In this document: one piece after another, positions 6,001 to 43,141 of the stretch
Layout: every line of letters begins with the position of its first letter
Numbering within the stretch: the first letter of the stretch is position 1
Made by a program: the position numbers and the translations under genes
Source: a virus
Reading direction: 5' to 3' (one strand)
DNA length: 64,000 nucleotides
Virus record (IMG/VR): IMGVR_UViG_3300028840_006907
Location: 224,001-288,000 of that record
Notes under the pieces: generated by a model
Database searches by the model: none
What the model saw: the letters and a program-made list of their open reading frames with translations, nothing else
Told to the model about the DNA's origin: nothing

Positions 6001-9000
6001 AGGGCGTTTATAGAATCAGGTTTTTTAAGAGTCAGTGACGGTACTACAGCTTCTCCAATACCTTCATGGGGTGCTACTGGTGCCACAGGAAATACTGGGG
6101 CTACAGGATCCACAGGGGCTACAGGATCAGGGACTCAAGGAACAACAGGAGTTCAAGGATCTGCCGGGGCTACTGGAGCTACTGGACCGGCTGGAACTGG
6201 TTCTACAGGAGTCCAAGGTGTCCAGGGTGAAACCGGTATTCAGGGTCTCCAAGGTGATACGGGTGTTAGTTTAGGAGCAACAGGCTTGCAAGGTATCACA
6301 GGTCTCAGGGGATTCACGGGACTGCAGGGTCAAACCGGTGTTGCTGGGGAAACCGGAGTTCAGGGAGTGCAGGGACAAACCGGAGCTTTTGGTGGCCCTC
6401 CAGGAGAAACTGGCGTGCAAGGTGTCCAAGGAAACACTGGAGTACAAGGAACTACTGGAGTTCAAGGATCAACCGGAGTTCAAGGAATTCAAGGTCAGAC
6501 CGGAATTCAGGGAATCCAAGGAAATACTGGAGTACAAGGAATTCAAGGTAATACTGGAGTACAAGGTCAAACCGGAGTAAGTGGAGAAACTGGAGTACAA
6601 GGAACTACTGGAGTTCAGGGTATTCAAGGTCAAACTGGTATAGCAGGTCAGACAGGTATAGCAGGTCAAACCGGAGTTCAAGGAATCCAGGGAATTCAAG
6701 GTCAAACAGGTGCCCAGGGTTTAACAGGAGTAGCAGGTGAGACTGGAGTCCAAGGATCTCAGGGAAATACCGGAGTTCAAGGTATCCAAGGGCATACGGG
6801 AGCTGGGATACAAGGTACTACTGGTGTTCAAGGTTTACAAGGTCAGACTGGCTCTCAAGGTACTACTGGAATTCAGGGAGAAACTGGTGTAGGTATCCAA
6901 GGTCAGACGGGTGTTGCCGGTGTTGATGGCCAAACCGGAATTCAAGGAATCCAAGGAACCACAGGAGTTCAAGGTGAAACAGGAACTCAAGGAATTCAAG
7001 GAAATACCGGAATTCAAGGAACTCAAGGAAGCACAGGAGTTCAAGGAGAAACTGGAGTTGGTGCTCAAGGAACTACTGGAGTGCAAGGAATACAAGGAAA
7101 TACTGGAGTTCAGGGAACAACCGGAGTTCAGGGAATTCAAGGTCAAACCGGTGTTCAGGGAACACAAGGAGAAACAGGTTATATAGATTCTTCCAGTGTT
7201 AATCATAACGCTCTTCTTAATTTAACTGTTGGTGATGACCATACTCAGTATGCTTTTTTAGCTGGTCGTACTGGTGGGCAAACTATAAATGGTGGTGATG
7301 CTGCTTCAGACGTTTTAACTCTTCAAAGTACTACTGATACTACAAAAGGGAACATCATTCTTAATCCTATTAGTGGGGATGTCCCTGGTAAAGTTGGTAT
7401 AGGAGTAACATCTCCGATTTATCAATTACATGTTGGAGAGATTTTAGATGGCGGTACTGTAGGTATATGTATAAATAACCAGTATACTGCAAATGGATCA
7501 GTTGATGAAACTGCTAGTTTAATATATAGATTTGGTAGGCCACTCAGTCCTCAATATAGAGTAGCAGGTCAAGTATTAGTAGGTAAGGAACAGGATTGGT
7601 GGGATTATAATAGTACTGACGCTTATATGGCTTTTCATACTACTCGTGATACAATTTCACGTGAACAGATGAGAATTAATGCTCAAGGTTATGTTGGAAT
7701 AGGTACAACAAATCCCCAAGCTAAGCTTCATGTAACGACATTTGCTCAATTTGATGAAGGCTTTTCAACTAATATCGGTATAGGTGTTACCGCTCCTCAG
7801 GCACAGTTACATGTCGGAGAGAGTGTAACTGATGGAGATGTTTCAATAATTGTGAATAACTGGTCTTGGACTGGAGGGTCTGTAGATGAGACAGCTAGTT
7901 TACAATTCCGTTTTGGGCCTCCTCCAAGTAATTATTCTGCTGGTAAAATTTCTGCTCATAAAACTTTAGATTATATGAGTTTCGATAATAGAGACTCTTA
8001 TATGACTTTTAGTGTTGTAAATAATCAATCTGAAGTTGAGCGTATGAGGATTTTAAATGATGGAAAGGTAGGTATTGGTACAACTGATCCTCAAGAAAGA
8101 CTGCATGTAATTGATAGGGGTCAATTTGATATGGGGCTACAACAACCTATTGGTATAGGTGTAACGGCTCCATTAGCTGAATTACATGTTGGTAATAGTA
8201 CTAATGGTGGTGATGTAGGCATTATTATTAATAACCAATACAATACTACTGGATCAGTTGATGAAACAGCAAGTTTAATTTATAGATTCGGTACAGTAGG
8301 AAGTGCAAATTATCGAGTAGCTGCCAGAATTTGTGCTCATAAAGAATTAGACTGGCAATCTTTTGATAATGTCGATTCAGCTTTAGCTTTTAGGACTACT
8401 CGAAATCAATCTGAAAATGAAAGAATGAGAATAACTAGTGAAGGTGATGTAGGAATTGGTACTGTCACACCTTCAGAAAAATTACATGTAGAAGGTAATA
8501 TTTATACTACTAATGGTTTTCTTGCTGGTGGGAACATCCAAATTGAAGGGGACTTTTTAGGAGGGACTGATGGTAATTCTAATTTAGGCTCTACTTCAAG
8601 AAGATTTAATAACCTTTATATGGCTTCTTCGATAAATTATAATTCTGATCTAACCTTTGATTGTACGGGTACCCATGTAACCCTTACAACTGGTGGTAAC
8701 GTAGGTATAGGAACTACAAATCCCCAAGGATTATTTCATGTTTCTGATGATACCAATGGTGGTGATGTAGGTATTGTTGTTAGTAATCGCTATATTGGTG
8801 GTGGGTCAGTTGATGAAACAGCTAGTATGATTTATCGTTTTGGCCATCCGTTAGGAGTAGCTAATAAAGTTGCAGCCAGAATAAGTGCCCATAAAGAATT
8901 AGATTGGGCAAACTCTAATAATACTGATGCTGCTTTGATTTTCTGGACTACTCGTGATGCTGTTGAACGACAACAGATGAGAATTGATAGCAATGGTTAC

Positions 9001-13828: not shown

Positions 13829-14470
13829 TTATCTATCAAATTCTGAAATTTTCATATCTTTTAAAGTGATTATATAATTCTTTTTAACACCACTCTCAAT
13901 GAATTTGATTAATGACTCCGATGCTACTGCCACTGCCAGAAGTATAATATTCCTGGCCAATGGGTACTCGCATACATCAGGAGCTATCGTGTCTTTTGGG
14001 ACGGTATAAGATTCGTTCCATATTATTTCCGCGTAATCCTGAGACAGCCCGACATGTAAACAGCTCAAACCATTATCCTTACAATATTGATAAACTAATT
14101 TTCGGCTAATATTATTATCAAAAGAATCGATGATAATATTTGGTTTTTTCAAATATTTACTCACAGTAGTTTTATTAAGTTCTTTACTATTGGCATTCAA
14201 AACAGTTTTGGTTGAAGCATATGCTCTCATTTTCATAGTCGCTACTTTGTAGGTACCTTTTTCATTTTGGTTCCAGATCTGGGTACCATTATTGTGAGGT
14301 TCAATTCTGTCTTTATCGATAATTGTAATTTCTTTGAATCCCTGTCGAACTAAATTATCACAAAGATTTGACCCTATTGCTCCGACACCACAGAGTGTAA
14401 TTGGGGTTGTTGATAATTTACCAACTACTTCTTCAGATCGATACATTCTTTCATGTATTAATAAATCCAT
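13829..14470 (-). CDS. E1-like (ThiF/MoeB-family) adenylation-domain protein
   Basis: 213 aa. Rossmann motif ITLCGVGAIGSNLCDNLVRQGFKEITIIDKDRIEPHNNGTQ (GxGxxG followed by D-x-D...N...Q), then IIDSFDNNISRKL (the DN of ThiF-type folds). A Cys sits in DVCEYPLARN. The usual Arg of N-x-x-R-Q is Thr here. Confidence 0.75.
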   Translation of the reverse strand: MDLLIHERMYRSEEVVGKLSTTPITLCGVGAIGSNLCDNLVRQGFKEITIIDKDRIEPHNNGTQIWNQNEKGTYKVATMKMRAYASTKTVLNANSKELNKTTVSKYLKKPNIIIDSFDNNISRKLVYQYCKDNGLSCLHVGLSQDYAEIIWNESYTVPKDTIAPDVCEYPLARNIILLAVAVASESLIKFIESGVKKNYIITLKDMKISEFDR

Positions 14471-14474
14471 AATA

Positions 14475-14999
14475 TCATCCTATCCTAGCTATAATGCGAT
14501 CTTTTAACAAGACAAAGGGAATTTCAATACAACCTACAATCCGGTCTTTGTCTCTTTTATATAAATAAAATCTTTGTACTTCTGATTTGATTCCACATAA
14601 TAACGGTTTACCCAAAGCTTTGACCCAACCAGTCATAGTTTTATCATCTAAGGATGAAGGTTCCATTATATTACTTGGATGAGTATGATTAAAACCTACT
14701 ATTTTATTTCTGTCTCTGATTACTTTTTCCCAGTCAAAATCAACTGAACCAGGACCACCAGTGGATTCATAGATTAGTCTACCATAAATCCATTTGCAGT
14801 ATTTTTTACCATATATGATCCAACAATTTTCGTTAATTGTTTGTACTACTTCAATAGCTTCTATTGTTAATTTATTTTTATTGTAAATACCTTTATATGT
14901 TCGACCACATTCTGGGCATGGCATTCTTTGTGTTTCATTTTCTGTAATCCAGCATATATATTTTCCGCACTTACATGTAAATTCACTGCTTTCGGGCAT
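14475..14999 (-). CDS. zinc-ribbon + JAB/MPN+ (JAMM) metallopeptidase
   Basis: 174 aa. N-terminal CKCGKY...CPECGR. Exact JAMM signature GFNHTHPSNIMEPSSLD (H-x-H-x7-S-x2-D). Confidence 0.8.
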   Translation of the reverse strand: MPESSEFTCKCGKYICWITENETQRMPCPECGRTYKGIYNKNKLTIEAIEVVQTINENCWIIYGKKYCKWIYGRLIYESTGGPGSVDFDWEKVIRDRNKIVGFNHTHPSNIMEPSSLDDKTMTGWVKALGKPLLCGIKSEVQRFYLYKRDKDRIVGCIEIPFVLLKDRIIARIG

Positions 15000-15025
15000 A
15001 GGGATATATCCTTATTTTAGATTTT

Positions 15026-15925
15026 CTAATACAACGTTCTACTTATTTGATGAGTGCGTTGACCCTCTTTTATTACAGAAATTAATGCTTTTAAATCATA
15101 GTCTTTATCACCAACATGACCTGTTTCATGGTCGGTTAAACAGATGCCTGCAGTAATAACGTGGTGACTTTGATCTTTAGTAACAATAGTATTAAATTTC
15201 TCTCCATCGATTTCATATGTTACATAAATATGATCCGATTTTTCATCACTGCTCAGGTATTTACCTCCGGCAAATTCTATATCACGTTGAATCTTTGTTT
15301 TTTTCTTTTCTTCAAGTGCTCGTTCACGTTCTTCTTTGATTTTTAAATCGATTTTGTATTTTATGTTAAAAGCAATTTTCTCCTCCAATGTCAGACCAGA
15401 GAATTTTAATTTAGATGGGTCTCTGAATTCTTTCAGGGACTCATTAAGATAATCTGTAATCATCGGATCGGCTGACATATCCATTGAATCAAACCAGATA
15501 TTAGCTCCGTCAAATCGGCATAGACATTTAGAAAATGTTGTAACCATATCATCGAAAAGAAGAACTGGGTATAATTCTGATACTTTTAATCCCAGATGAT
15601 TACTCTTTATCGGGATCCCAAGATAAAAATCTTTCTTTTTATGTACTAAAACCATTCTTATCTTTGGTAAATATTTAAGATAAGATTGAATCTCATCTAT
15701 TTCCGCTAAATCTATTGCTTCAGCCCGTTTATTATCAAGTGCTTTGAATTTGTACCATCCCGGTTCTGTTTTCGGGATGTTTAAGTAATGAATAATTCCT
15801 TGAATACGGATAATGATTCGGTCATTATAATACACAGGAGAAATGATAGTCTTTTCAGTCATCATTTCTTCCTGTTTCCCTATTTTATCAATAAGGTTTA
15901 AAATATTATCTTTTCTTACGGTCAA
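15026..15925 (-). CDS. hypothetical protein with C-terminal E2/UBC-like active-site motif
   Basis: 299 aa. TTG start with GAGGAA 5 nt upstream, overlapping the upstream gene by 20 nt. The C-terminus YVTYEIDGEKFNTIVTKDQSHHVITAGICLTDHETG...LKALISVIKEG resembles the UBC motif HPN-x3-G-x-ICLD...SI-x-LL. The N-terminal ~220 aa has no recognised motif. Confidence 0.45.
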   Translation of the reverse strand: MTVRKDNILNLIDKIGKQEEMMTEKTIISPVYYNDRIIIRIQGIIHYLNIPKTEPGWYKFKALDNKRAEAIDLAEIDEIQSYLKYLPKIRMVLVHKKKDFYLGIPIKSNHLGLKVSELYPVLLFDDMVTTFSKCLCRFDGANIWFDSMDMSADPMITDYLNESLKEFRDPSKLKFSGLTLEEKIAFNIKYKIDLKIKEERERALEEKKKTKIQRDIEFAGGKYLSSDEKSDHIYVTYEIDGEKFNTIVTKDQSHHVITAGICLTDHETGHVGDKDYDLKALISVIKEGQRTHQISRTLY

Positions 15926-17462
15926 AAGATTTCCTCACGGGTAAAGGTGTATCCATGATCTCATATAGAAGATCGAGTTTTGATTTTCTGGATAGCAATG
16001 GAATTAATCCAGGCAATCCATAGTAATCGCTACCTTCAGGTTCATAGTAATCGAAAGGTATTCTAGCTTGTTTTAAATACATGCTGAATTCTTTACGACT
16101 CCATGAACTTGGAATGTAAATAATAGTAATAGTAGGAGTCACATTAAATTTTTTAACATAATTATCCCATATCTCAACGAAAAATGGATTATTATTTTCA
16201 CCTTCATCAGTGACCACTATTATCTGTTCTACATAATAGTTTTTTCTAATAAGGTAATCTAATGCTATACCTATGGAAGTCCCACCATTACTTTTTACAG
16301 GTCTGAAAGCCCTTTCCCAGGCAGACATATTCGGTTCATTAGCTGTGATCTCTCTGGCCATTGTATCAAAAGTAATAGCATAGAGAGGAGCTTCTGTAGC
16401 ACCTGAAATAAGAGCCGCAACATTTTTTCCGACTTCGATGGCTTGAGTCATAGAACCTGATTTATCGATAAAGACTGCAGTAGGTACTTTTATAACACCT
16501 TTCTTTTTAATTTGCTGATCTGCAATTTCATCGAGGATCTTTTGAGATTCCTCATTTTTGATCCGACCTGTTTTCTTTGCTTCTTTGGATTTTAAAGCTG
16601 ATACATTTTTAGCTTTTTTAGCTTTTTCCAATTTAGCCGTAATCAATGTTTTTGTATCCTCATTGTCCATGGCACCACGTTCTTCTAGGGAAGCATAGTT
16701 ATTAATAACTTCCTGTGGAGACATAGCATTGATTAGAGCAATCAGAATTGTAGGAGTGATTTGATCAACCAAACCTACAGCCACCGTATAAGGTACTTTA
16801 TGTTCTATAATCAGCTTTGCCACTTCAGTCGGATTATCAGCTTGTGCTATTTTTTCGAAAACATTTAATTTACTGTCCGTAGGACGTTCATTTCCGAAAA
16901 GAATCTTCTGAGCACGTTCACTAGGTGCTATACGAAGAGTAGCATATAATCCTTTAAGATCTTTTGGACTTTTTAGGGCAATAGCATCAAAAAGATCGTT
17001 GTTGGTTTCAATATATTGAAGAAATTTCTCAACATCCCTTTTAAAGGCAGTAGGAATATTTTTGTAAAGACCTACATTTTTTTCTTCAATTTTTACTTCA
17101 TCGATCATTTTTTTCTTCATTTTTATTTTTTTGCCCGTTTTATTTCTGATCTTTATTTTTTTACCTTTAATAAAACCGACCACACGTCTTTTAAGATATA
17201 CAGGTATTTCCCTGAAGAGGGCTAGCCCAACTTCACGGTTGTCAAGAAATTCATCAACAATAAGTGAACCGATGAATACTTCTTTATGATCCCGAATATC
17301 TCCATTCTTGTAGTACCAGCTTCCAAGGTGGGCATAAAACAGCGGATCTGCTTTTTGTAATTCAAGATGGGTATTTTTTAATTTATCTAGGTCCCGGTGA
17401 GGGCAACTCAGAAATGAGTTAAGCATGTTAACTCTGATATCATTTTCGTTAGCTTGGTTCAT
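15906..17462 (-). CDS. Ro60/TROVE-like protein with C-terminal vWA (MIDAS) domain
   Basis: 518 aa with AAGGAGG upstream. The C-terminal ~190 aa parallels the Ro60 vWA block by block: VFIDKSGSM (DxSxS), AITFDT, NGGTSIGIAL, QIIVVTDEGEN. The N-terminal ~330 aa is helical with ADPLFYAHLGSWYYKNGDIRDHKEVFIGSLIV, similar to the TROVE N-terminal signature. Contains a Lys-rich insert (GKKIKIRNKTGKKIKMKKK). Confidence 0.6.
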   Translation of the reverse strand: MNQANENDIRVNMLNSFLSCPHRDLDKLKNTHLELQKADPLFYAHLGSWYYKNGDIRDHKEVFIGSLIVDEFLDNREVGLALFREIPVYLKRRVVGFIKGKKIKIRNKTGKKIKMKKKMIDEVKIEEKNVGLYKNIPTAFKRDVEKFLQYIETNNDLFDAIALKSPKDLKGLYATLRIAPSERAQKILFGNERPTDSKLNVFEKIAQADNPTEVAKLIIEHKVPYTVAVGLVDQITPTILIALINAMSPQEVINNYASLEERGAMDNEDTKTLITAKLEKAKKAKNVSALKSKEAKKTGRIKNEESQKILDEIADQQIKKKGVIKVPTAVFIDKSGSMTQAIEVGKNVAALISGATEAPLYAITFDTMAREITANEPNMSAWERAFRPVKSNGGTSIGIALDYLIRKNYYVEQIIVVTDEGENNNPFFVEIWDNYVKKFNVTPTITIIYIPSSWSRKEFSMYLKQARIPFDYYEPEGSDYYGLPGLIPLLSRKSKLDLLYEIMDTPLPVRKSFDRKKR

Positions 17463-17483
17463 AATATCTCATCCTCCTTATGT

Positions 17484-17750
17484 TCAGGTTTCAATTTTTC
17501 CGAAAGTAGCATTTGGTCTAACTGTAATGTTACCATTTTTATGGTGTTCAACAACTAATTCAGCAAATTCTGATGCTGGTCTATCATAATGATCTACTAA
17601 AGCCAATTTAATTTGTTCACCAGTTATATTATCCGATGTGATCTCGGTTCCTGGTTCAATCCCGAGTTGTTCCCATCTGTCTTCTGGGAAAAGATCTTTG
17701 AGATTAATATCTTCAGTTTGACCATCATACATTATATGGACTTCACTCAT
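17484..17750 (-). CDS. small acidic protein, candidate ubiquitin-like (beta-grasp) modifier
   Basis: Start revised to the ATG at 17750, with GGAGG 5 nt upstream; the 109-aa version in the track lacks an RBS. 88 aa: MSEVHIMYDGQTEDINL...ITVRPNATFGKIET. First gene of the E2/JAB/E1 operon, with a Gly 4 residues from the C-terminus. Confidence 0.6.
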   Translation of the reverse strand: MSEVHIMYDGQTEDINLKDLFPEDRWEQLGIEPGTEITSDNITGEQIKLALVDHYDRPASEFAELVVEHHKNGNITVRPNATFGKIET

Positions 17751-17790
17751 ATGAGCCTCCTTGTAATAAGTTAAAAAAAGAGTCCCGTAT

Positions 17791-17807
17791 ATTATACGAC
17801 ACGAGAT
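17791..17807 (-). promoter_or_regulatory. conserved promoter motif, family 1 (CTYCRTGTCGTATAAT)
   Basis: The minus strand reads ATCTCGTGTCGTATAAT, about 40 nt upstream of the 17750 start. The same TGTCGTATAAT core recurs at 18956-18972 and 61807-61823 on the plus strand. Confidence 0.6.
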
Positions 17808-17888
17808 TAACATTTCATTAAGTAAAAAATTGGGTAGAATATAAATTCTTGTGTGTCATCATGGTAAATAACTTTTTTAAAAAAATTA

Positions 17889-17917
17889 TTGACACACTTA
17901 AAATTTATGGTTATATT
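17889..17917 (+). promoter_or_regulatory. sigma70-type promoter of the RNA operon
   Basis: TTGACA (17889-17894), a 17-nt spacer, then TATATT (17912-17917). The predicted start near 17924 coincides with the first base of the RNA1 closing helix. Confidence 0.7.
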
Positions 17918-17923
17918 ATTGAC

Positions 17924-18063
17924 AGTTCTGCACTCTAACTTTTGATGCTTACATAGAGAAAATAGCTCAGTTGGTCAGAGCGCGAGATTTAGGTTCTTGA
18001 AGTCTTCGGTTCAATTCCGAATTTTCTTACCATAAAATTAGCACCTTCAACTTGTGCAGAACT
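17924..18063 (+). ncRNA. structured RNA unit 1: shared closing module enclosing a complete tRNA
   Basis: Perfect 10-bp terminal helix AGTTCTGCAC (17924-33) / GTGCAGAACT (18054-63). Family module just inside it: 5' TCTAACTTTTGATGCTTACA and 3' GCACCTTCAACTT. The cargo is the tRNA at 17956-18032. Confidence 0.6.
17956..18032 (+). tRNA. tRNA, anticodon UAG (Leu by the standard table), class-I shape, CCA encoded
   Basis: Hand-folded cloverleaf. Acceptor GAGAAAA/TTTTCTT (G1-U72). D-arm GCTC-AGTTGGTCA-GAGC. Anticodon arm CGAGA-TTTAGGT-TCTTG (U33, anticodon TAG at 17990-92, G37). 5-nt variable loop AAGTC. T-arm TTCGG-TTCAATT-CCGAA, A73, then CCA. Confidence 0.85.
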
Positions 18064-18081
18064 ACTTAAACCAAGAAATAA

Positions 18082-18199
18082 AAGTCAGACATTCTAATTA
18101 TTAGGGCGTACATGGCGTTAAAACCATGCTTCCTGCAGAAATCAGGAAGCAATCTCTGGGCCAAGGCTCAGGGGCGCACTGATGACTTATGTCTGACTT
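18082..18199 (+). ncRNA. structured RNA unit 2: shared closing module enclosing three hairpins
   Basis: 11-bp terminal helix AAGTCAGACAT / ATGTCTGACTT. Module 5' TCTAATTATTAGGGCGTACA and 3' GCGCACTGATGACTT. Interior hairpins: CATGG-cgttaaaa-CCATG, CTTCCTG-cagaaat-CAGGAAG, and CTGGG-ccaagg-CTCAG. Confidence 0.55.
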
Positions 18200-18248
18200 A
18201 ATATAGATTGTAAAGTGTTGTAAAATAAATTTGATCTTTGAAAATTAT

Positions 18249-18430
18249 AGGATAATGCCTTCTAACCTGTTGGGCTTACAAATTTTACTGGTTCGACTCC
18301 AGGTTCCGCCTCTCGGTCCTTTTGTAAAGATTGTAAAGGATCAGGAGGCGGAACAAGCCGGGTGGTCTGGCGATTGAATGCAAATCAATTTATTTGAAAT
18401 TAACGCTCTTTTAACTTGGGCATTTATCCT
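18249..18430 (+). ncRNA. structured RNA unit 3: closing module + circularly permuted tRNA-like core (Y-RNA/YrlA-like)
   Basis: Terminal helix AGGATAATGCC / GGGCATTTATCCT (one bulge), followed by TTTTTT. Order inside: T-arm CTGG-TTCGACT-CCAG (18288-302); a 20-bp closed acceptor-like hairpin (18303-354); AA; D-arm GCC-GGGTGGTCT-GGC; and hairpin ATTGA-ATGCAAA-TCAAT. Confidence 0.6.
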
Positions 18431-18477
18431 TTTTTATAGTAATTTATAATTTTATATAAAGTGATCTTTGAAAATAT

Positions 18478-18660
18478 GAGGTAAGTGCCTCCTAACATAA
18501 CGGGCTTACAAATTAATAGGGTTCAACTCCCTGTTCCCCCGCCTAAGTCTTTGTCATATAATGATTAAGATTTGGGCGGGGGAACGAGCTGGGTGGTTCA
18601 GCAATCAACGTTTAATTGATGAAAAACATTTTTACGCTCTTTTAACTTAGGCACTTACTC
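18478..18660 (+). ncRNA. structured RNA unit 4: closing module + circularly permuted tRNA-like core
   Basis: Terminal helix GAGGTAAGTGCC / GGCACTTACTC, followed by TTTTT. T-arm AGGG-TTCAACT-CCCT. Closed acceptor-like hairpin GTTCCCCCGCC...GGCGGGGGAAC. D-arm GCTG-GGTGGTT-CAGC. Hairpin ATCAA-CGTTTAA-TTGAT. Confidence 0.6.
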
Positions 18661-18681
18661 TTTTTATTAAATTGAAATTAC

Positions 18682-18858
18682 AAGGAGCACCTTCTAACCT
18701 GTTGGGCTTACAAGTTATTCGGGGTTCAAATCCCTGTCCCGGCACTAGGTTGATTCCCTAAAAGTCAACCCAGTGCCGGGATAGCCAAATTGGTAAAGGC
18801 GACTATATTGAACATAGTAAACAAAACTATCTACGCTCTTTTAACTTGGGTGCTCTTT
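18682..18858 (+). ncRNA. structured RNA unit 5: closing module + near-perfect circularly permuted tRNA
   Basis: Terminal helix AAGGAGCACC / GGTGCTCTTT. T-arm CGGGG-TTCAAAT-CCCTG (18720-36). Acceptor 3' strand TCCCGGC + A73, a linker hairpin, then acceptor 5' strand GCCGGGA (18775-81). U8 A9, D-arm GCCA-AATTGGTAA-AGGC, and anticodon arm ACTAT-ATTGAAC-ATAGT (UGA at 18809-11). Confidence 0.6.
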
Positions 18859-18899
18859 ATATATTTCTCGCAAAAGGAATACAGGGTGAAACAGGAGTA

Positions 18900-18940
18900 T
18901 AGGGATTAAGAAGAAATTTTTGATCCCTATTTTATTTTTT
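18900..18940 (+). terminator. intrinsic terminator closing the RNA operon
   Basis: Stem TAGGGAT (18900-06) / ATCCCTA (18923-29), then TTTTATTTTTT. The loop is rather large (16 nt). Confidence 0.5.
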
Positions 18941-18955
18941 CCCGGATTTTCCCTA

Positions 18956-18972
18956 CCTTCATGTCGTATAAT
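18956..18972 (+). promoter_or_regulatory. conserved promoter motif, family 1
   Basis: CCTTCATGTCGTATAAT, 44 nt upstream of the 19016 start. 16 of 17 positions match the copy at 61807-61823. Confidence 0.6.
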
Positions 18973-19015
18973 TATTAGATAAAGATTTTCTAAACATTTT
19001 ATTAGGTAATTAATT

Positions 19016-21643
19016 ATGACATGTAAAATTTGTAAGAGTAATCTTTCTTATACTTTTGATAAATTTCCAGCTTATAAGTTCTGTCCTTGTTGTAACCTTT
19101 ATTTTCAAGAAGAATTTCCACCAAAGATATTTGAAGGTCCTGATGAGAATAACGGGCATGGTCCCGGTACAGGTCATTTAATGTCTGAGGATGAAAAGGA
19201 AATAAATAAAAATTTCGCTAATGTTCTCTATGATATGTTTATTCCTCGAACTCTTCTAGATATAGGTTGTAAATACCCCTATTTTATTAGTGTGTTAAAA
19301 GATAAAATAGATGTATTAGGAATTGATCCTATTTCAGAGATCTTGAAATATGGAGAAGAATTGGGTGTCTCTGTAATTCGTGATGATTTTGAAGATATGA
19401 ATATTACTCCTTTAAAAAATAAATTCGATTTAATAACTTTGATACATACTTTCGAACATTTTTATAGCCCAATAGAGACCATGAAAAAGATAATCGAATG
19501 TCTTACTCATAGAGGAGTGCTTTTAATAAGAATTCCAAACATAGATATTGAAGGTATAGAAAGAGATTTTACTGATCATCATGTTCAAATCCATCCCTTT
19601 ATATATTCAACACAAGCAATGTATCGAATCGCTCAAAAATTTGATTGTGAAATTTTTAGGGTCGATGATATTATTGGATATGGCCAGAGCGATTTTTATT
19701 TAAGGAAGAAAAGGGACCATCTTTCTTTATCGGTTTGTATGATTGTAAAAGATGAGGAAAAGAATGTTTCTGATTGTTTGGAGAGTATAAAAGATGTAGC
19801 TGATGAAATCATAGTTGTGGATACCGGATCTATAGATAATACCAAAGAAATAGTATCCAAATATACAACAAAGATATATGACTTTAAATGGATTGATGAC
19901 TTTTCTGCTGCTAGAAATCACTCTTTAAGTAAGGCAACGGGTGACTTTATTTTATGGCTTGATGCTGATGATATTGTAGAAAATCCAGAAAAGATTAATG
20001 AAATATTAAAAAATGATGATGCTAAGATATTTAATTTTAATATTAAATATGGAAATGATGTCTTTAGTCAGGCTAGACTATTTAGGAATTTTTATAATAT
20101 AAAATTTTCTGGTAGAGTTCATGAATATCCTGTAATCGATAATTTATATATAAAAGATACTGAAGTTAATGTAATTCATAAAACCGAAAAACATTCAACA
20201 GAAAACCGTTCTGATAGAAATCTCCGTCTCCTTAAAAAAGAATACGAAGATAATCCGAACAATTCCCGGACACTTTTTTACCTGGCAAGTGCTTATAAAG
20301 AACTTACTCGTTGGGATGAAGCTATAGATTTTTATCGAAAATATTTAACTATTTCTATCTGGAAAGATGAGAGATGGATGGCTCAAAAGAATATTGGATG
20401 TATTCTTTCCTGGAATAGAAAATATGAAGAAGCCATTGAAGAATTGAAGAAGGCTATTGAAATAGATGATCGATGGGCTGAGTCATATTATTATATAGCT
20501 GAGTGTTATTTCTATTTAAAAAACCCTCAAGAATGTATAAACTGGTCTTTAAAAGCTATTGAGAAAAAGATGCCCGAATCACCTCTTTGGAAAGAGATCC
20601 CAATTTATAATGACGCACCATACCGTTATCTCTTTGCTTCTTATGGTTCTTTAGGTGATTTTGAGAAAGCATTGCATTATTGTAAGATAGCATCAGAAAA
20701 AGTTCCTGAGGATGAATGGCTTAAGGAAAGAGTCACTTATTTTGAGAATGCTACAAAAGGAGTTCCTGTTGTAGTCGAATGTAATCGGTGGGGGGCTTTG
20801 GGTGATTGTTTAATGACAACTGCATCTTTACGTGCCATTAAGCATAAGATTCCGGGTTGTTTTATAAGATATGTCACCCATCCTAGTATGTTCCCGATCC
20901 TTGAAGGGAATAAGTTTATAGATGAACTTGTATCAGAATCTAAATCTGAGAACTCAGAAAAGGTTTATTTCTCATATCCTGACAGTAAATCTCCTATTAA
21001 AGATGAAGGTTATCCTAATAAGCCTTTGAATCGCCATTTAGTACGTATATTCGCAGAATGTGCTGGTTTAAAAGAATTTGATAATCTAAAGATGGAGTGT
21101 ACTCTTACAAAAGATGAGGAGAAATCAGGTCAGTCATTGAGATCTCGATTTAAGAAATATGTGACTCTTCATATCCATTCGGGTTGGTCTGAGTATAAGG
21201 ATTGGTATAATGATCGTTGGGAGACTGTTGTAGATGAGTTATTTAAAAGAGGTTACGTGGTTGTTCAGCTAGGCCATAAAGATGAGGGTCTCTTAGTTGG
21301 TACTGTGGATTATAGAGGCCATACTATAAAAGAAGCTATCTCTGCAATAAAATATGCTGATATTCATTTAGGAGTGGATTCATTTACAAACCATGCCTCG
21401 GCTACTGTGGGGACTCCTGCAGTTATTTTATTTGGGTCTACTTCTCCAACCGGTTCCGGGTATGATCAGAATATAAACCTTTATAAAGATTTGAAATGTC
21501 AGCCTTGTTATAAAGAATATGCATGGTCTAAGGATAATAAAGGAAAATGTCCTTATAATAAACTATGTATGGATCAGATCCTGGTTCAGGAAGTATTAGA
21601 CGGTTTTATGAGATTAGAAAAAAAATTATTTATTGATGGATAA
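19016..21643 (+). CDS. multidomain glycan-modifying enzyme (Zn-ribbon, SAM-methyltransferase-like, GT2, TPR, GT9/heptosyltransferase-like)
   Basis: 875 aa. CKICKS...CPCCN. Methyltransferase motif I-like LLDIGCKYPYF. GT2 motifs LSVCMIVKDEEKNV...IIVVDTGSIDNT and WLDADD. TPR-like LFYLASAYKELTRWDEAIDFYRKYL. GT9-like NRWGALGDCLMTTASLRAIKHKIPG and GVDSFTNHAS. Confidence 0.75.
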   Translation: MTCKICKSNLSYTFDKFPAYKFCPCCNLYFQEEFPPKIFEGPDENNGHGPGTGHLMSEDEKEINKNFANVLYDMFIPRTLLDIGCKYPYFISVLKDKIDVLGIDPISEILKYGEELGVSVIRDDFEDMNITPLKNKFDLITLIHTFEHFYSPIETMKKIIECLTHRGVLLIRIPNIDIEGIERDFTDHHVQIHPFIYSTQAMYRIAQKFDCEIFRVDDIIGYGQSDFYLRKKRDHLSLSVCMIVKDEEKNVSDCLESIKDVADEIIVVDTGSIDNTKEIVSKYTTKIYDFKWIDDFSAARNHSLSKATGDFILWLDADDIVENPEKINEILKNDDAKIFNFNIKYGNDVFSQARLFRNFYNIKFSGRVHEYPVIDNLYIKDTEVNVIHKTEKHSTENRSDRNLRLLKKEYEDNPNNSRTLFYLASAYKELTRWDEAIDFYRKYLTISIWKDERWMAQKNIGCILSWNRKYEEAIEELKKAIEIDDRWAESYYYIAECYFYLKNPQECINWSLKAIEKKMPESPLWKEIPIYNDAPYRYLFASYGSLGDFEKALHYCKIASEKVPEDEWLKERVTYFENATKGVPVVVECNRWGALGDCLMTTASLRAIKHKIPGCFIRYVTHPSMFPILEGNKFIDELVSESKSENSEKVYFSYPDSKSPIKDEGYPNKPLNRHLVRIFAECAGLKEFDNLKMECTLTKDEEKSGQSLRSRFKKYVTLHIHSGWSEYKDWYNDRWETVVDELFKRGYVVVQLGHKDEGLLVGTVDYRGHTIKEAISAIKYADIHLGVDSFTNHASATVGTPAVILFGSTSPTGSGYDQNINLYKDLKCQPCYKEYAWSKDNKGKCPYNKLCMDQILVQEVLDGFMRLEKKLFIDG

Positions 21644-22250: not shown

Positions 22251-25200
22251 ATGGCCAAGACAAAAAGGAAATGGATTGAGCTGGATTGGTACAATCCCAA
22301 TGCCTTACGTGCACAAGACATACCTTACGATCAAACCGAAAGTGTAAAAGATGCTATAGATAGAGCTGCCTCTGGAGTTCTCGGTCCGACGGGGACCACG
22401 GGTTCGACCGGTTCAACAGGTTCGACGGGTCCAACGGGTCCGACGGGAGCCACGGGTGCGACGGGAGCAGGAATCCAGGGTGAAACCGGAGTCGCTGGAG
22501 TTCAAGGAGCTACCGGAACCGGTGGTGGTGGAGATACTGGTGTCCAGGGTGAGACCGGTTTACCCGGAGCCACAGGAATCCAAGGTACAACCGGTATCCA
22601 GGGAACTACAGGAATCCAAGGTGAAACTGGAATCCAGGGACATACAGGTACAGTTGGAACAACGGGTGTTCAAGGAGAAACCGGTTCTCAGGGTACTACT
22701 GGAATCCAGGGAGAAACTGGAGTAAAAGGTGAAACTGGTATTCAAGGTCAAACCGGTATAGCTGGTGGAGCAGGATTTCCAGGAGCAACTGGAGTCCAGG
22801 GCGAAACCGGAGTCCAAGGAACTACTGGGGTTCAAGGGGAAACCGGGGTTCAAGGAACCACAGGAGTAGCCGGAGCAACCGGAGTCCAGGGAACTACTGG
22901 CGTCCAGGGAACTACTGGCATCCAAGGTGAAACGGGTGTCCAGGGAGATACTGGAGTTGGTGCCACTGGAATCCAAGGAACCACAGGTATCCAGGGTCAA
23001 ACCGGTGTTCAAGGTATCACCGGAGCTTATGGTGGTCCTCCTGGAGAAACTGGTGTCAAGGGAGAAACCGGAGTACAGGGGGCTACTGGAATCCAAGGTC
23101 TTCAAGGATTGCAGGGAACCAAAGGTGAGACCGGAACACAAGGTATTCAAGGCCAGACCGGAGTTCAGGGAGAAACTGGAGTTCAAGGGCAGACTGGTAC
23201 AGGTGCTCCAGGAGCCACTGGAGTTCAAGGGCAGACTGGTATCCAGGGAACCACTGGAATAGGTTTAGGTTCAACAGGAGTAGCGGGAGCAACTGGAATT
23301 CAAGGTACTACCGGAGTTCAAGGTAGGACTGGAGTCCAAGGATTTACCGGAGCTGCTGGTTTAGGTGAAACTGGTATCCAAGGAGCTACCGGAGTCCAGG
23401 GTGCCACAGGTATTCAAGGGACTACTGGTGCAGGAATCCAAGGAGCCACAGGTATTAGTGGTGACACGGGAGTTCAAGGAGCCACAGGAATTAGAGGTAC
23501 TACTGGTGCAGGAATCCAAGGAGCCACGGGGGTTCAGGGCATTCAAGGTCAAACTGGAGCCCAGGGCGAAACCGGAGTCCAGGGTGAAACCGGAATAGAA
23601 GGTTCTCAATTTGCAGGATTTAATTATAAAGCAAAAACAGACAATCAATCTGATACAGATCCTGGTATAGGAAATTTAAAGTGGAGTGCTGTAGCTCAAG
23701 TCACATCTAGTGAGCTTTATGTGGATGATGCTGACGTTAATTCTACGGATCTCAGTAATTTTTACCTCACTTTAAAAGCTGCCGACTCTTTACGTATTGT
23801 TCGTATGGAAGATCCTTCTCAGTATCAGATTTTTAATATAACAAACGTTACTGATAGAACCGGATGGTTCCGTTTATCTGTTACACCTGTTGTTTCAGGT
23901 GGTTCGACTTTTAGTTTAAATGATAATATCATACTGATATTTAGTATATCAGGTCCTAGAGGTCAGACCGGAGTAAAAGGTGAGACTGGAATTCAAGGAA
24001 CTACAGGTGTTGCCGGAGCCACAGGAGTCCAAGGTCAAACTGGAATTCAGGGTCAAACTGGAATCCAGGGCATACAGGGCCAGACTGGAATTCAAGGACA
24101 AACTGGTATTCAAGGTCAAACAGGAATCCAAGGTCAGACAGGTGTTGGCGCTCAGGGTGCTACTGGTGTAGCTGGTCAAACCGGGGTCCAGGGAGAAACT
24201 GGGATACAAGGTCAGACTGGTGCAGGAATCCAGGGAACTACTGGTGTTCAAGGCGTTCAAGGATTAACAGGTGTGCAAGGCCAGACAGGTGCCGGAATCC
24301 AAGGTGAAACCGGAGTCCAGGGTACTCAAGGTTTAACCGGTATACAGGGTCAGACAGGTGCTGGAATCCAAGGAGAGACTGGTGTTCAGGGAAACACTGG
24401 GGCTTTTGGTGGTCCTCCCGGAGAAACTGGTGTTCAGGGAGAAACTGGTGCACAAGGTTTAACTGGAGTCCAAGGTCAAACCGGAGCAGGTATTCAGGGA
24501 GCCACTGGTATTCAAGGAGTTACTGGAGTTCAAGGCCAAACCGGTGCTGGTATTCAAGGAGTCACTGGAATCCAAGGACAAACTGGTATACAGGGTCAGA
24601 CAGGAGTAGCAGGTCAGACCGGAGTCCAAGGAATACAAGGCCAGACAGGAGTAGCAGGTCAGACCGGAGTTCAAGGAATTCAAGGACAAACCGGAATAGC
24701 AGGTCAGACCGGAGTTCAGGGTATACAAGGTCAAACTGGAATTCAAGGGCAGACTGGTGCTGGAATCCAAGGTACAACTGGAGTAGCCGGAGCTACAGGA
24801 GTTCAGGGAATTCAAGGTCAAACAGGAGCTGGAATCCAAGGTACAACTGGAGTCCAGGGAACTACAGGAGTTCAAGGTGAAACTGGTACTGGTATTCAGG
24901 GAGAAACTGGTACGCAAGGTATTCAGGGTCAAACCGGAATTCAGGGACAGACTGGGATTCAAGGTAATACTGGTGTAAAAGGTGAAACCGGAGTTCAGGG
25001 TTTTCCAGGTCCTCAGGGTACGAAAGGTGATACTGGTGCTCAAGGTATTCAAGGTGAGACAGGAACTCAAGGAATTCAGGGCCAAACTGGAGTAGCTGGA
25101 GAAACTGGAGTTCAGGGTCAAACGGGTACTCAAGGAATTCAGGGTCAGACTGGTGTAGCTGGTGCAACTGGTGCGGGAATTCAAGGTCAAACTGGTGTTC

Positions 25201-28200
25201 AAGGAATCCAAGGTCAGACTGGAATCCAGGGGCAAACTGGAGTCCAGGGTGAAACAGGTATAGAAGGATCTTTATGGGCTGGATTTAGTTATAATGCCAA
25301 GACTGATGATCAGTCAGATACAGATCCTGGTACAGGGAATCTTAAATGGAGTACTGTTGCTCAGGTAAATGCGGGTGAACTTTATGTAGATGATACTGAT
25401 CAATATTCCATAGATTTAAGTAATTTTTATCTTACGTTAAAGGCTGGTGATTCTCTTCGAATAATTCGTCAGGAAGACCCTTCTCAATATCAAATTTATA
25501 ATATAACAAATGTTACAGATAGAACAGGTTGGTTCCGTCTTAGTGTGACCTATGTTACTTCAGGTGGATCTACTTTCAGTCTTAATGATAATATTATTCT
25601 TGTTTTTGTTAAAGCTGGAATTCAAGGTCAGACAGGTGCCCAAGGTATTCAAGGTCAAACAGGAGTCCAAGGAATTCAAGGACAGACTGGAGTTCAAGGA
25701 GCCACAGGTACCCAAGGAATTCAGGGGCCACAAGGCCAGATAGGTCTTCAAGGTACTACTGGGGTCCAAGGTGAAACCGGAGTCCAGGGCACACAAGGTC
25801 AGACGGGTATCCAGGGTACAACAGGTGCCGGGATTCAGGGTCAAACCGGAGTCCAGGGAATTCAGGGTCAAACCGGTATTCAAGGTCAAACAGGAGCAGG
25901 TATTCAGGGAGCTACTGGTATTGCTGGTATAGATGGTCAGACTGGAATCCAGGGTGAAACCGGAATTCAGGGCCAAACTGGAGCTGGTATTCAGGGAGCT
26001 ACTGGTATTGCTGGTATAGATGGTCAGACTGGAATCCAGGGTGAAACCGGAATTCAGGGCCAAACTGGAGCTGGAATCCAAGGTGAAACCGGTATCCAAG
26101 GAATTCAAGGATTAACAGGTATTCAAGGTACAACTGGTGCTGGCATTCAGGGAGAAACTGGAGTACAGGGTACACAAGGTCAAACAGGTGTTCAAGGTCA
26201 AACAGGTGCCGGAATTCAGGGTGAAACCGGAGTCCAGGGCACACAAGGTCAAACCGGTATTCAGGGTCAAACTGGCGCTGGTATCCAAGGTGTGACAGGA
26301 ATTCAAGGAATACAAGGACAAACTGGTATCCAGGGTCAAACGGGTGCCGGAATCCAAGGAGAAACCGGAGTCCAGGGAGAAACAGGAATACAAGGTCAGA
26401 CTGGTGCAGGAATCCAGGGAACTACTGGTGTTCAAGGCGTCCAAGGATTAACAGGTGTCCAGGGTCAAACTGGTGCTGGTATTCAAGGTGAAACCGGAGT
26501 CCAGGGTACTCAAGGTTTAACTGGTATACAGGGTCAGACAGGTGCTGGCATTCAGGGAGAAACCGGGGTCCAGGGAGAAACTGGAATACAAGGTCAGACT
26601 GGTGCAGGGATTCAGGGTGTGACAGGAATTCAAGGTCAAACTGGAGTTCAGGGAACTACAGGAATCCAGGGTCAAACAGGTGTTGGGATCCAGGGTGTGA
26701 CTGGAGTTCAAGGAATTCAAGGTCAAACCGGTATTCAAGGTCAAACCGGTATTCAAGGTGAAACCGGAGTGTCTGGAGCTACAGGTATTCAGGGAATTCA
26801 AGGTCAAACCGGAATCCAGGGTCAGACCGGAGTCCAAGGAGAAACAGGTGTACAAGGTTCTACAGGTGTATTAGGTGATCCTAATTGGATAGATTTTGTA
26901 CCTCAAGCATCTGCTCCTAGTCATCAGGAAGCTCGCCTTTTTTATGATTCAACAGACCATTCATTGAGTTATTACAATGAAGAATCTGATGTTACCCTGA
27001 ATTTAGGTCGTGAATTATATATCAGAGTGTATAATGCAACAGTTTCAACAATAACTAACGGTCAAGTAGTTTATGTCACAGGTGTTGCTGCAGGATACCC
27101 CACAATAGATTTAGCAGATGGTAGTGATTTAACTAAGACTAATAATATAGGAGTGGCTACTCATAATATAGAAGCCTCAACATTTGGTTATATCACATTA
27201 TTTGGATTAGTAAGAGATATTAATACTAATGCTTTCAGTGCTGGTGATGAAGTTTGGTTAAGTGAAAGTACTCCAGGTGGTTACCAGTCTTTTGCAGGTA
27301 CATATGCCGTTAAAATAGGTTATGTTGTTGTTTCAGATACATTAAATGGTTCAATAATGGTAGCTATGGGTGATACGGAAGCTACTATAGCTGGATTGAA
27401 TGATGTAAATCTTACTAGTATCTCTGATGGTCAGTATTTACAATGGGACTCGGATTCTACTAAATGGGTTAATGTTTCTGAAAGTCCTCAAGGTGATACA
27501 GGTATCCAAGGAGCAACTGGAGTTCAAGGAATTCAAGGAACTACAGGAGTTCAAGGAGCAACTGGAGTTCAAGGTATTCAAGGAACCACAGGAATTCAAG
27601 GACAGACCGGAGTTCAGGGTGAAACCGGAATTCAAGGAACTACAGGAGTCCAGGGAGAAACTGGTACTGCAGGAATAGACGGTCAGACAGGAGTTCAGGG
27701 TGAAACCGGTATTGCAGGAATAGATGGTCAGACAGGAGTTCAAGGTACTACCGGAGTTCAGGGAATTCAAGGAACTACAGGAATTCAGGGAGAAACCGGT
27801 ACTGCAGGAATAGACGGTCAGACAGGAGTTCAAGGTGAAACTGGAACTGCAGGAATAGACGGTCAGACAGGAGTTCAAGGTACTACCGGAGTTCAAGGAA
27901 CCACTGGAATTCAAGGTACTACCGGAATTCAGGGAACTACTGGAATTCAGGGAGAAACCGGTACTGCAGGAATAGACGGTCAGACAGGAGTCCAAGGTAC
28001 TACTGGGATTCAGGGGGAAACCGGAGTCCAAGGTACCACAGGGATTCAGGGAGAAACCGGAGTCCAAGGTACTACTGGAATTCAGGGAGAAACTGGTGTT
28101 TTTGGGATTGTCAATTATATCGATTATGAACCTCAAGATACAGTTCCTTCTCATTTAGAAGGTCGTACCTTTTATGACAGTACAGATCATTCTTTAAGTT

Positions 28201-34878: not shown

Positions 34879-34881
34879 TAA

Positions 34882-37173: not shown

Positions 37174-37220
37174 TTATAAAATTTACATATAAGATCTATA
37201 TAACATATAAGGAGGTTCAA

Positions 37221-42782: not shown

Positions 42783-43141
42783 TAACTGAAATTGATGATG
42801 ATAGTAAAGACATAAAGATAAAATTAGGAAATTTATTTGAAAAATATGAAAATCTTTATCGGGAAGGGAATAGACAGTTTAGAACAGAGAGAATAGCTTC
42901 TGCTGGGTCAATGGATGGTCTGGAAGAATTTCGTCGTTTGATGCTTATTGTAAAAAGAAATAAGGATGTAGTGGCCTCGCTAATGCGGGGTATAGCTAAT
43001 TTTAGGTCTATTTCAAATTTTAAGTTTGTAGAAGAGGAAGTAGAAATTTCAAAACCGAAACCAAAGAAAACAAAGAAAGCTACTCCTGAAAAAGTGATCA
43101 TACCTATACCAATAGTAGCGGAGGAATTTAATGGCGAATAA
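42761..43141 (+). CDS. hypothetical protein
   Basis: 126-aa ORF overlapping the portal start by 11 nt. Has a Lys-rich C-terminal segment. Confidence 0.6.
   Translation: MPDFNKLITEIDDDSKDIKIKLGNLFEKYENLYREGNRQFRTERIASAGSMDGLEEFRRLMLIVKRNKDVVASLMRGIANFRSISNFKFVEEEVEISKPKPKKTKKATPEKVIIPIPIVAEEFNGE

Follow-up and report, generated by a model that had tools for sequence, protein, structure and literature searches.

Permuted tRNA-like units on a shared scaffold beside a Ro60-like gene in a bacteriophage genome

We analysed 64,000 nt of viral DNA (IMGVR_UViG_3300028840_006907, positions 224,001–288,000; hereafter the window), part of a 388-kb phage genome, in which an array of five RNA units of one shared design lies at 17925–18858 (+), near a gene for a Ro60-like protein. 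Three of these units (units 3–5) contain all the arms of a tRNA in rotated order. They are probably paralogous genes for structured non-coding RNAs, members of a Y-RNA-like scaffold family tied to a cryptic Ro60-like ring protein, and are best read as a branch of the YrlA/Yrn1-type Y RNAs, not as true permuted tRNA genes. This reading is carried by the anatomy of the units, the covariation of their helices, their specificity within the window, the modelled Ro60 fold of the neighbouring protein and the co-occurrence of gene and RNA. A preliminary description of the region, made from the letters alone, had held two readings side by side, YrlA-type tRNA mimics near a Ro60-like gene or true permuted tRNA genes; the first of these is now supported by the Ro60 fold, by the co-occurrence and by the precedent of YrlA itself.

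Architecture of the permuted units

In the minimum-free-energy folds from which the unit structures were taken, each of the five units is closed by a 9–13-bp helix of its own ends, followed inward by a module that is split between its 5′ and 3′ sides. Within units 3–5 the module encloses, in order, a T-arm, a 7-nt acceptor 3′ strand, a 31–37-nt linker hairpin, a 7-nt acceptor 5′ strand, two nucleotides, a D-arm with GG, and a 5-bp stem with a 7-nt loop that resembles an anticodon arm; a 15–16-nt A/U-rich linker then joins the anticodon-like arm back to the module. Unit 3 (18250–18429, +) has its closing helix at 18250–18260/18418–18429, the 5′ module at 18261–18280 and the 3′ module at 18405–18418, and its core runs through the T-arm (18287–18303), the acceptor 3′ strand (18304–18310), the linker hairpin (18311–18346), the acceptor 5′ strand (18347–18353), the D-arm (18356–18372) and the anticodon-like arm (18373–18389, loop AUGCAAA). 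Unit 4 (18478–18660, +) is closed at 18478–18490/18650–18660, with the module at 18491–18510 and 18636–18649, the T-arm at 18517–18533, the acceptor strands at 18534–18540/18578–18584 around a linker hairpin at 18541–18577, the D-arm at 18587–18603 and the anticodon-like arm at 18604–18620, whose loop CGUUUAA has G33 in place of U33. Unit 5 (18682–18858, +) follows the same plan, with the closing helix at 18682–18692/18849–18858, the module at 18693–18712 and 18835–18848, the T-arm at 18720–18736, the acceptor strands at 18737–18743/18775–18781, the linker hairpin at 18744–18774, a D-arm of the class II type at 18784–18800 and the anticodon-like arm at 18802–18818 (loop AUUGAAC). Its parts can be read off directly: an acceptor TCCCGGC/GCCGGGA, an A after the 3′ strand, then UA, a D-arm GCCA-AATTGGTAA-AGGC and an arm ACTAT-ATTGAAC-ATAGT. 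In units 3 and 5 the sequence of the 5′ module is TCTAAC-N5-GGGC-TTACA, from which units 1, 2 and 4 deviate slightly, and the 3′ module of the five units reads GCTC-TTTTAACTTG or a near variant.

The preliminary description had already reported the rotated order of the arms, the acceptor, U8 A9, D-arm and anticodon-arm details of unit 5, the unit 3 loop ATGCAAA (GCA) and the unit 4 loop CGTTTAA without U33, and every string that it quoted lies where it had been placed. It had also set the break point at the equivalent of tRNA position 43/44. The rotation is real, and the break is better placed in the variable region (positions 44–48) than exactly at 43/44. We infer that the module and closing helix stand where a class II tRNA has its long variable arm, because many members of the family, unit 5 included, have a class II-type D-arm (GCCRAGTGGTWAAGGC).

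The other two units carry different bodies on the same base. Unit 1 (17925–18062, +; closing helix 17925–17933/18054–18062, module 17934–17953 and 18041–18054) holds an ordinary cloverleaf tRNA at 17956–18032 (+) with an encoded CCA and the anticodon UAG, called by ARAGORN and matched by the Rfam tRNA model at 65.9 bits. The anticodon is that of a leucine tRNA, but the long variable arm typical of bacterial tRNA-Leu is missing. Unit 2 (18082–18199, +) combines the scaffold, which the module profile matches, with three apical hairpins that are not tRNA-like (fold −54 kcal/mol), and can be described as a YrlB-like partner.

The shared basal module

Across the family the basal module consists of an end helix of 9–15 bp, an asymmetric 10/7-nt internal loop and an inner helix of 6–7 bp. 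The loop has the pattern YYUAAC-N5 on its 5′ strand and N-R-ACU-Y-R on its 3′ strand, and the inner helix ends in invariant G-C/C-G pairs that are followed by an invariant UACA. Invariant or nearly so are thus the G-C and C-G pairs, the UACA, one A of the 5′ loop and the ACU of the 3′ loop. We aligned the modules of 83 units, with each apical domain swapped for AAAA, and found 77% of the cells of the closing and inner helices paired, as against 58% after shuffling. The covariation score of the module was 0.46, compared with 0.19 for shuffled alignments (0/500 shuffles) and 0.10–0.26 when the pairing partners were slid; all 15 of the 15 closing-helix pairs covary over the 83 units, and RNAalifold added one further covarying pair immediately before the UACA.

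In the window the 5′-module pattern is confined to the array plus one chance match, at 54625, which lies inside an open reading frame (ORF) and has no closing helix. We also considered the module as a ribozyme or as a bulge-helix-bulge motif, and neither Rfam nor the covarying structure supports either. No bulge-helix-bulge was found at the termini of the units: there are no 3-nt bulges around a 4-bp helix, and the arrangement is not 3-4-3.

tRNA likeness and specificity of the permuted core

A covariance model of the permuted core, to which the window contributed no sequence, was derived from 21 units found at other loci. Over both strands of the 64 kb it returned three significant matches only, and these are unit 5 (18709–18819, 48.2 bits, E = 3e-7), unit 3 (18277–18390, 47.4 bits, E = 5e-7) and unit 4 (18507–18621, 43.2 bits, E = 3e-6); the sole further match was unit 1, at an insignificant E of 0.14. 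A separate parser for permuted bodies gave 65 matches in 1.45 Mb of real sequence, compared with 6 in block-shuffled sequence, and most of the real ones follow the UACA junction. The independent support for the permuted core lies in these two results, the covariance search of the window and the genome-scale parser control. Within the core, 20 of the 21 pairs vary on both sides and the covariation score is 0.99, as against 0.23 for shuffled alignments and at most 0.21 with slid partners, and 96% of cells are paired (58% shuffled), a percentage that is inflated because the parser that picked the seed units requires pairing. Across homologues the helices of the permuted core change in a compensatory manner.

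In native order, Rfam tRNA and ARAGORN recognise only the tRNA of unit 1 in the whole window, and not units 3–5. We re-permuted the units in silico, by cutting at the acceptor hairpin and joining the anticodon-like arm to the few bases that precede the T-arm. ARAGORN at its default threshold accepts re-permuted unit 5 as tRNA-Ser(UGA), and at 95% of that threshold it accepts units 3 and 4 as tRNA-Cys(GCA) and tRNA-Lys(UUU); shuffles of the re-permuted units were never called (0/300), even at 80% of the threshold. Among re-permuted family members 33/37 were called tRNA, compared with 0/37 shuffles. The nucleotides of the tRNA elbow are mostly kept across the family, with a T-loop of the form TTCRANY, U8 in 28/35 members, A14 in 30/35 and GG in the D-loops.

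The anticodon-like loop shows a mixed pattern. A purine at position 37 (33/35 members) and A38 (28/34) are widespread, and U33 is present in 23/35 and in units 3 and 5; it is missing from unit 4 and from 12/35 members, or 11/34 once the duplicate shared by loci L020 and L021 is removed. The replacement of U33 affects every GUA (Tyr-like) and UUU (Lys-like) loop and two of the three GCA loops, although these numbers are small. Loss of U33 with purine 37 and A38 kept might mean that the loops are non-decoding or nuclease-resistant. A comparison of homologous loci, proposed in the preliminary description as a way to see whether the anticodon-like loops are conserved, gave a negative answer for the triplets, which differ between close relatives.

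The neighbouring Ro60-like protein

A distance of 463 nt, with a small ORF alone in between, separates the first base of the array from the start of the gene for the Ro60-like protein (15906..17462, −). The 518-aa product is modelled by AlphaFold2 (36 homologues, predicted local distance difference test (pLDDT) score 83.5) as a helical-repeat ring with a C-terminal vWA domain that contains the MIDAS motif DKSGS. In a Foldseek search of the PDB with this model the top 13 matches were all Ro60/TROVE structures, full-length, with E values from 4e-11 to 3e-8 and template modelling (TM) scores of 0.52–0.64; they include the Ro60 of phage phiLo (9KOP, the best match), Xenopus Ro (1YVP), human Ro60, Deinococcus Rsr (2NVO) and 9NEP. 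As modelled, then, the neighbour has the Ro60 fold, and the Ro60-like gene named in the preliminary description is real and detectable by fold comparison only. Pfam, PADLOC, PHROGs, NCBIfam and a PDB sequence search all leave the protein unnamed, and its homologues give weak matches to Pfam VWA.

Residues ~101–130 of this protein (window 15906–17462) form a lysine-rich two-stranded beta-hairpin, GKKIKIRNKTGKKIKMKKKMIDEVKIEEKNVG, which is inserted in the helical ring and kept across homologues. No equivalent was noticed among the solved Ro60s, whose alignments were not inspected residue by residue.

Distribution and cargo of the scaffold

Relatives of the Ro60-like protein number more than 1,000 in metagenomes, and the clade also occurs in at least 447 species genomes, mostly of cyanobacteria and planctomycetes, and in huge phages. 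We compared 16 loci from IMG/VR, 80 from metagenomes and 80 from species genomes, the last of these mostly from cyanobacteria (Nostoc, Calothrix, Phormidium, Laspinema), planctomycetes and others. Scaffold RNAs accompany the Ro60-like gene in about 100 huge-phage and metagenome loci and in 72 of the 80 cellular loci, so in at least 72 cellular genomes, which are mostly cyanobacterial. In the cellular loci the 5′-module pattern matched 230 times on the strand of the gene and 3 times on the opposite strand, with 8 and 8 matches in shuffled sequence, and 199 of the 230 fall within 4 kb upstream of the gene. This pattern with its shuffled controls was used because nhmmer at E ≤ 0.01 found nothing in the cellular loci. 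The covariance model of the permuted core likewise gave 44 matches at E ≤ 1e-3 in 79 viral and metagenome loci and 96 at E ≤ 0.01 in 79 cellular loci; the latter are all on the strand of the gene and nearly all upstream of it (one lies downstream, L161 5543–5617), and a few low-scoring ones straddle tandem tRNAs.

The scaffold carries more than one kind of body. Owing to a weak 3′ profile, pairing of 5′ and 3′ module profile matches left about half of the units undetected, and a closing-helix search was used instead; the profile and closing-helix searches together yielded 106 distinct units in the viral and metagenome loci. Of the 106, 32 enclose a normal cloverleaf tRNA, in most cases CCA-ended and trailed by an A-rich sequence, about 35 are full permuted tRNA bodies, and others have a T-arm and acceptor stem only or are devoid of tRNA features. 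Several of the scaffold-embedded tRNAs of relatives have A34 anticodons (AUU, AAU, AUC, AAG, AAA).

Ribosomal RNA (rRNA) motifs are displayed as well. In the chromosome of Calothrix sp. NIES-2100 (L176 6220–6425) the scaffold encloses the sarcin-ricin-loop sequence AGUACGAGAGGAAC together with a segment resembling the GTPase-associated centre, and Rfam matches it as large-subunit rRNA at 51.7 bits. In about 30 loci of cyanobacteria the sarcin-ricin string comes after the scaffold junction, and several of these loci also have the segment that resembles the 23S GTPase-associated centre. The same Calothrix locus contains an L7/L12-like ORF (L176 3353–3733).

Expression signals

A strong sigma-70-like promoter (17889..17917, +; TTGACA-17-TATATT, 11/12 matches) ends 7 nt before unit 1 and would start transcription at the first base of that unit. 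The same TTGACA...TATATT arrangement recurs ahead of the first unit in loci L018, L022, L023, L025 and L029. At the other end the array is closed by a terminator-like hairpin with a T-run (18899..18940, +). The five units are probably made as one transcript, from the promoter at 17889–17917 to the terminator near 18900–18940, with internal processing or initiation signals (the TCTTTGAAA motif and T-runs) perhaps acting between them.

The 14-nt motif TGATCTTTGAAAAT stands upstream of unit 3 (18232..18245, +) and again upstream of unit 4 (18462–18475, +), and T-runs follow the closing helices of both, all as the preliminary description had noted when it suggested unit-specific initiation, processing or termination. 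The family bears this suggestion out in part, with a TCTTTGA-type motif within 35 nt upstream of 39/106 units and a T-run after 42/106 closing helices; the motif may be a promoter, a processing site or a protein site. The 11-mer core of the motif is not enriched across the window. A (G/A)WTCTTTGAAA sequence lies a few nucleotides upstream of many units of distant relatives.

Alternative explanations

Several observations weigh against assigning units 3–5 to a Y-RNA-like family. The sequence that Ro60 proteins canonically bind is GNCGAAN0-1G in bacteria and GGUCCGA in animals, and both are absent from the 5′ strand of all five units. Of the features of Y-RNA families, location within ~4 kb of a Ro60 orthologue is found here, with the identity of the Ro60 being structural only, and the canonical Ro-binding motif and a match to a curated model are not. 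At E ≤ 10 across 17750–19000 the tRNA of unit 1 was the sole credible Rfam match, in a search for which the Y-RNA families held by Rfam 15 were not verified; the other matches were microRNA-type hairpin noise on the acceptor hairpins, sub-threshold and far below the gathering scores. On the protein side, Pfam TROVE matches neither the 518-aa protein nor five homologues even at E ≤ 0.1, and identity to the solved Ro60s is only 10–15%, so that the mode of RNA binding may differ. The array is divergent from the operon of the Ro60-like gene in the window and its closest relatives, and co-directional with it in most relatives. To these points belong the inflated pairing percentage of the core, and also the intact anticodon-like arm together with the NCC(A) of long-linker relatives described below, which hint at a possible opening of the acceptor end in some members.

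That hint leads to the alternative that survives best. The units might be Y-like scaffold RNAs from which the acceptor hairpin is excised, by RNase P, 3′ trimming and CCA addition, to leave a two-piece, CCA-ended tRNA-like molecule; the pieces would be held together by their own helices, as for YrlA of Mycobacterium smegmatis, and the product might be aminoacylated. In the M. smegmatis RNA a 7-bp acceptor stem created a substrate for RNase P, and CCA was added in vivo (PMC4201824). The acceptor stem of units 3–5 is likewise a true helix of 7 bp and stacks on a T stem of 5 bp. The linker lengths of the family are bimodal (4–9 or 27–39 nt), and 9 of the 12 long linkers start with N-C-C directly after the acceptor 3′ strand, 4 of them with N-CCA, where ~6% would be expected by chance. 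Unit 4 shares this feature, reading G-CC-U; units 3 (UCUC) and 5 (ACUA) have no CC after the discriminator, which counts against excision, and in all three units the linker extends the acceptor helix across the would-be cleavage site. A helix that runs through the cleavage site generally disfavours RNase P. Furthermore, 22 of the 35 relatives cap the acceptor stem with only 4–9 nt, so a free CCA end is unnecessary for the function of the family. Taken together, we regard excision to a two-piece product as unlikely. The NCC(A) at the start of long linkers could be left over, as a relic, from tandem tRNA genes that encoded CCA, or could mark an opened acceptor end. Long-linker units with N-C-C occur in loci L019, L020, L045, L048 and L069, and in the window at 18541–18544.

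The relic interpretation of NCC(A) also fits a second alternative, in which the scaffold is a cassette for the expression, processing or stabilisation of tRNAs and is unconnected with the Ro60-like protein. Here a leader–trailer duplex would protect phage tRNAs or time their release, and the permuted units would be degenerate by-products of tandem duplication; tandem duplication of tRNA genes is the published model for the origin of YrlA (bioRxiv 10.1101/312249). The 32 of 106 units that hold normal tRNAs, mostly with an encoded CCA and an A-rich trailer, speak for such a cassette. Against it, the permuted units are kept with compensatory changes in all four helices and recur in phages and bacteria. 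The scaffold is also tightly linked to the Ro60-like gene in position and strand and carries rRNA mimics too, and tRNA arrays without the scaffold occur in related loci (e.g. L012). We consider the cassette highly improbable.

Least credible of all, and close to dismissal, is the second reading of the preliminary description, that these are true permuted tRNA genes whose transcripts are cleaved in the closing helix, ligated end to end into a circle and freed of the linker by RNase P and RNase Z to yield functional tRNA-Cys, tRNA-Lys and tRNA-Ser: all arms do stand in the order known from Cyanidioschyzon, ARAGORN accepts the re-permuted units, and purine 37 and A38 are largely kept, but in place of a bulge-helix-bulge the termini pair in a long helix that is followed by a 10/7-nt loop, a helix of 7 bp and single strands, U33 is gone in unit 4 and in about a third of members, most relatives cap the acceptor with a few nucleotides, the anticodon-like triplets differ between close relatives, and the same scaffold flanks CCA-ended tRNAs that need no end-joining, non-tRNA folds and rRNA mimics. 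Bacteria and their phages are, moreover, not known to possess the tRNA-splicing endonuclease, and neither a splicing endonuclease nor a ligase was seen among the scanned proteins of the window (64 of 388 kb), in a scan that included no dedicated test for them.

Proposed function

On the preferred reading, that units 3–5 are Y-RNA-like scaffold RNAs, the basal module would be the docking site of the Ro60-like protein, and the ring would hold this module, by analogy with Yrn1 and YrlA (PMC4201824; PMC12135203). The tRNA body displayed at the other end, presumably in an L-shaped fold, may then recruit, tether or titrate a tRNA-binding factor of the host or the phage. For a phage, the most economical guess is a decoy or tether for host tRNA-directed enzymes. 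The neighbouring E1, JAB, small Gly-ended and OB-fold proteins (see below) might point to an added conjugation or RNA-handling step.

Since one docking stem is found with tRNAs, with permuted bodies and with rRNA mimics, the displayed shape, and not decoding, seems to matter, and the candidate ligands are tRNA- and ribosome-binding enzymes or toxins. We tentatively extend this to a modular bait or decoy, in which a single docking stem displays whole tRNAs, permuted tRNAs with Tyr-, Lys- and Cys-like loops devoid of U33 and, in cyanobacteria, the sarcin-ricin loop and GTPase-associated centre, and so captures, senses or neutralises nucleases and toxins directed at tRNA or the ribosome; this is a speculative proposal, which we think more likely wrong than right. 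If it held, units 3–5 would be anti-defence decoys against host anticodon nucleases, and the operon of E1, JAB and small protein might mark what is caught.

The role of the tRNA-like domain in bacterial Y RNAs has been open since 2014. The family described here would supply a second body of examples of such a domain, independent and very large, with informative variation, and the Ro60 clade to which it is tied would be a hidden one, missed by sequence-based TROVE surveys. In particular, Pfam sees no TROVE in cellular homologues of the clade either, so that the survey of Y RNAs published on the basis of TROVE (PMC4201824) would have passed it over. The permuted units with NCCA after the acceptor 3′ strand in turn support the published origin of such mimics from tandem tRNA genes.

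Operon and phage context

The Ro60-like gene lies in an operon (window 13829–17750; loci L002–L097) that is kept in huge phages. We counted its genes in 54 loci with enough downstream sequence, and in operon order the small ORF, the Ro60-like gene, the gene for a 299-aa protein, JAB and E1 are present in 42, 54, 44, 34 and 24 of them. The small ORF (17484..17750, −; 88 aa) precedes the Ro60-like gene in most loci, and its homologues end near Gly or Gly-Gly, which makes its product a candidate ubiquitin-like protein. Downstream of the Ro60-like gene, the 299-aa protein (15026..15925, −) gave an AlphaFold2 model with a pLDDT of 84.6 and had its best Foldseek matches to RNase II, 3go5 and the cold-shock domains of Unr (E 1e-4 to 2e-3, low TM scores); on this weak structural likeness it may consist of several stacked beta-barrels of the OB/S1/cold-shock type. 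The same model replaces an assignment as a Cas6 nuclease that processes the array, to which PADLOC gave a weak match (E = 0.0045), with barrels of the OB/S1 type. The JAB-type peptidase (14475–14999, −) matches Prok-JAB at E = 1.6e-4, below the curated cut-off, and PADLOC JAB, and the E1-like ThiF adenylyltransferase (13829–14470, −) matches Pfam ThiF at E = 1.9e-23 and PADLOC E1-E2. A tRNA thiolation operon of the TtuA/TtuB/TtuC type was considered and rejected, as the 299-aa protein has no PP-loop motif or corresponding Pfam match. In the literature searched we found no report of a link between Ro60 and ubiquitin-like conjugation machinery.

The window also encodes a terminase, a portal protein, a prohead protease and a major head protein, as expected of a tailed phage, and a BLAST search of the region of the RNA array against deposited phage genomes found no relative. 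The portal gene (43131–46484) is split by an intein that carries a LAGLIDADG homing endonuclease domain. Directly 3′ of the array, 19016–21643 encodes an 875-aa fusion of a SAM methyltransferase, a family 2 glycosyltransferase, TPR repeats and a family 9 glycosyltransferase (heptosyltransferase). Two giant ORFs, at 3040–10053 (2337 aa) and 22251–31487 (3078 aa), contain stretches with a markedly raised G+C content of 0.44–0.49, as against ~0.34 elsewhere, and the second is followed at 31499–38959 by several Laminin_G_3 fibre-like proteins.

Comparison with known systems

The concept of a Y-RNA-like tRNA mimic is already known, and we found no description of this particular RNA family in the literature searched, whose coverage was incomplete, so that this is no proof of absence. 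The closest parallel is YrlA, reported from Salmonella, M. smegmatis and mycobacteriophages (Chen et al. 2014, PMC4201824) and characterised in published work as a circularly permuted tRNA whose acceptor stem is capped (bioRxiv 10.1101/312249; PMC4201824), for which a crystal structure is available (6CU1; bioRxiv 10.1101/312249). Like YrlA, the units have a stem made of their 5′ and 3′ ends, a permuted T-arm, a capped acceptor-like stem, a D-arm and the nucleotides of the elbow, and a Ro60 gene lies no more than a few kb away from them, at a locus that, as is often the case, holds more than one Y RNA. Unlike YrlA, which is opened at the anticodon loop and has none, they are broken in the variable region and keep a full arm of 5 bp and 7 nt; where YrlA has GNCGAAN0-1G, they have another internal loop with GC pairs and UACA. 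Their protein partner, in addition, is not detectable as TROVE by sequence, and they belong to a five-unit array on a scaffold that also holds unpermuted tRNAs.

Yrn1 of Deinococcus radiodurans, the Y RNA that tethers Rsr to PNPase, resembles the units in other respects: besides a T-arm it contains a stem-loop compatible with a 5-bp anticodon arm, a V arm is missing, and the Ro-binding stem thus departs from the tRNA-like body close to the variable position (PMC4201824). Its D-arm is only partial, its loop has 6 nt and its Ro-binding helix is canonical, whereas the units described here have an entire D-arm and a full 7-bp acceptor stem. Thermus phage phiLo provides a phage precedent, with a Ro60 and the Y-like Yrl1 and Yrl2 encoded just upstream of it (PMC12135203; PDB 9KOP, 9L5Y); its RNAs were chosen by a CGAA motif and a stem-bulge-stem shape and are not described as full tRNA mimics (PMC12135203).

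The permuted tRNA genes of Cyanidioschyzon merolae, other algae and the archaeon Thermofilum pendens share the order of T-arm, acceptor 3′ strand, intervening sequence, acceptor 5′ strand, D-arm and anticodon arm. They differ in having a bulge-helix-bulge, a splicing endonuclease, a ligase and canonical tRNAs with U33, none of which is seen in this bacteriophage. The b7a-tRNAs, compared here through a citing paper and not by sequence, are authentic-looking tRNAs predicted to be non-translational partners in RNA-repair neighbourhoods of the Ro60/RtcB type, and in this they recall unit 1 and the 32 embedded tRNAs; they are not described as lying within a conserved closing stem, and they go with Band-7 and RtcB and not with a ubiquitin-like, E1 and JAB operon. 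Against all of these systems, the family in the window is set apart by its break point, its anticodon-like arm, the size of its array, the shared scaffold, a Ro60 that is invisible to profiles, and the context of the operon.

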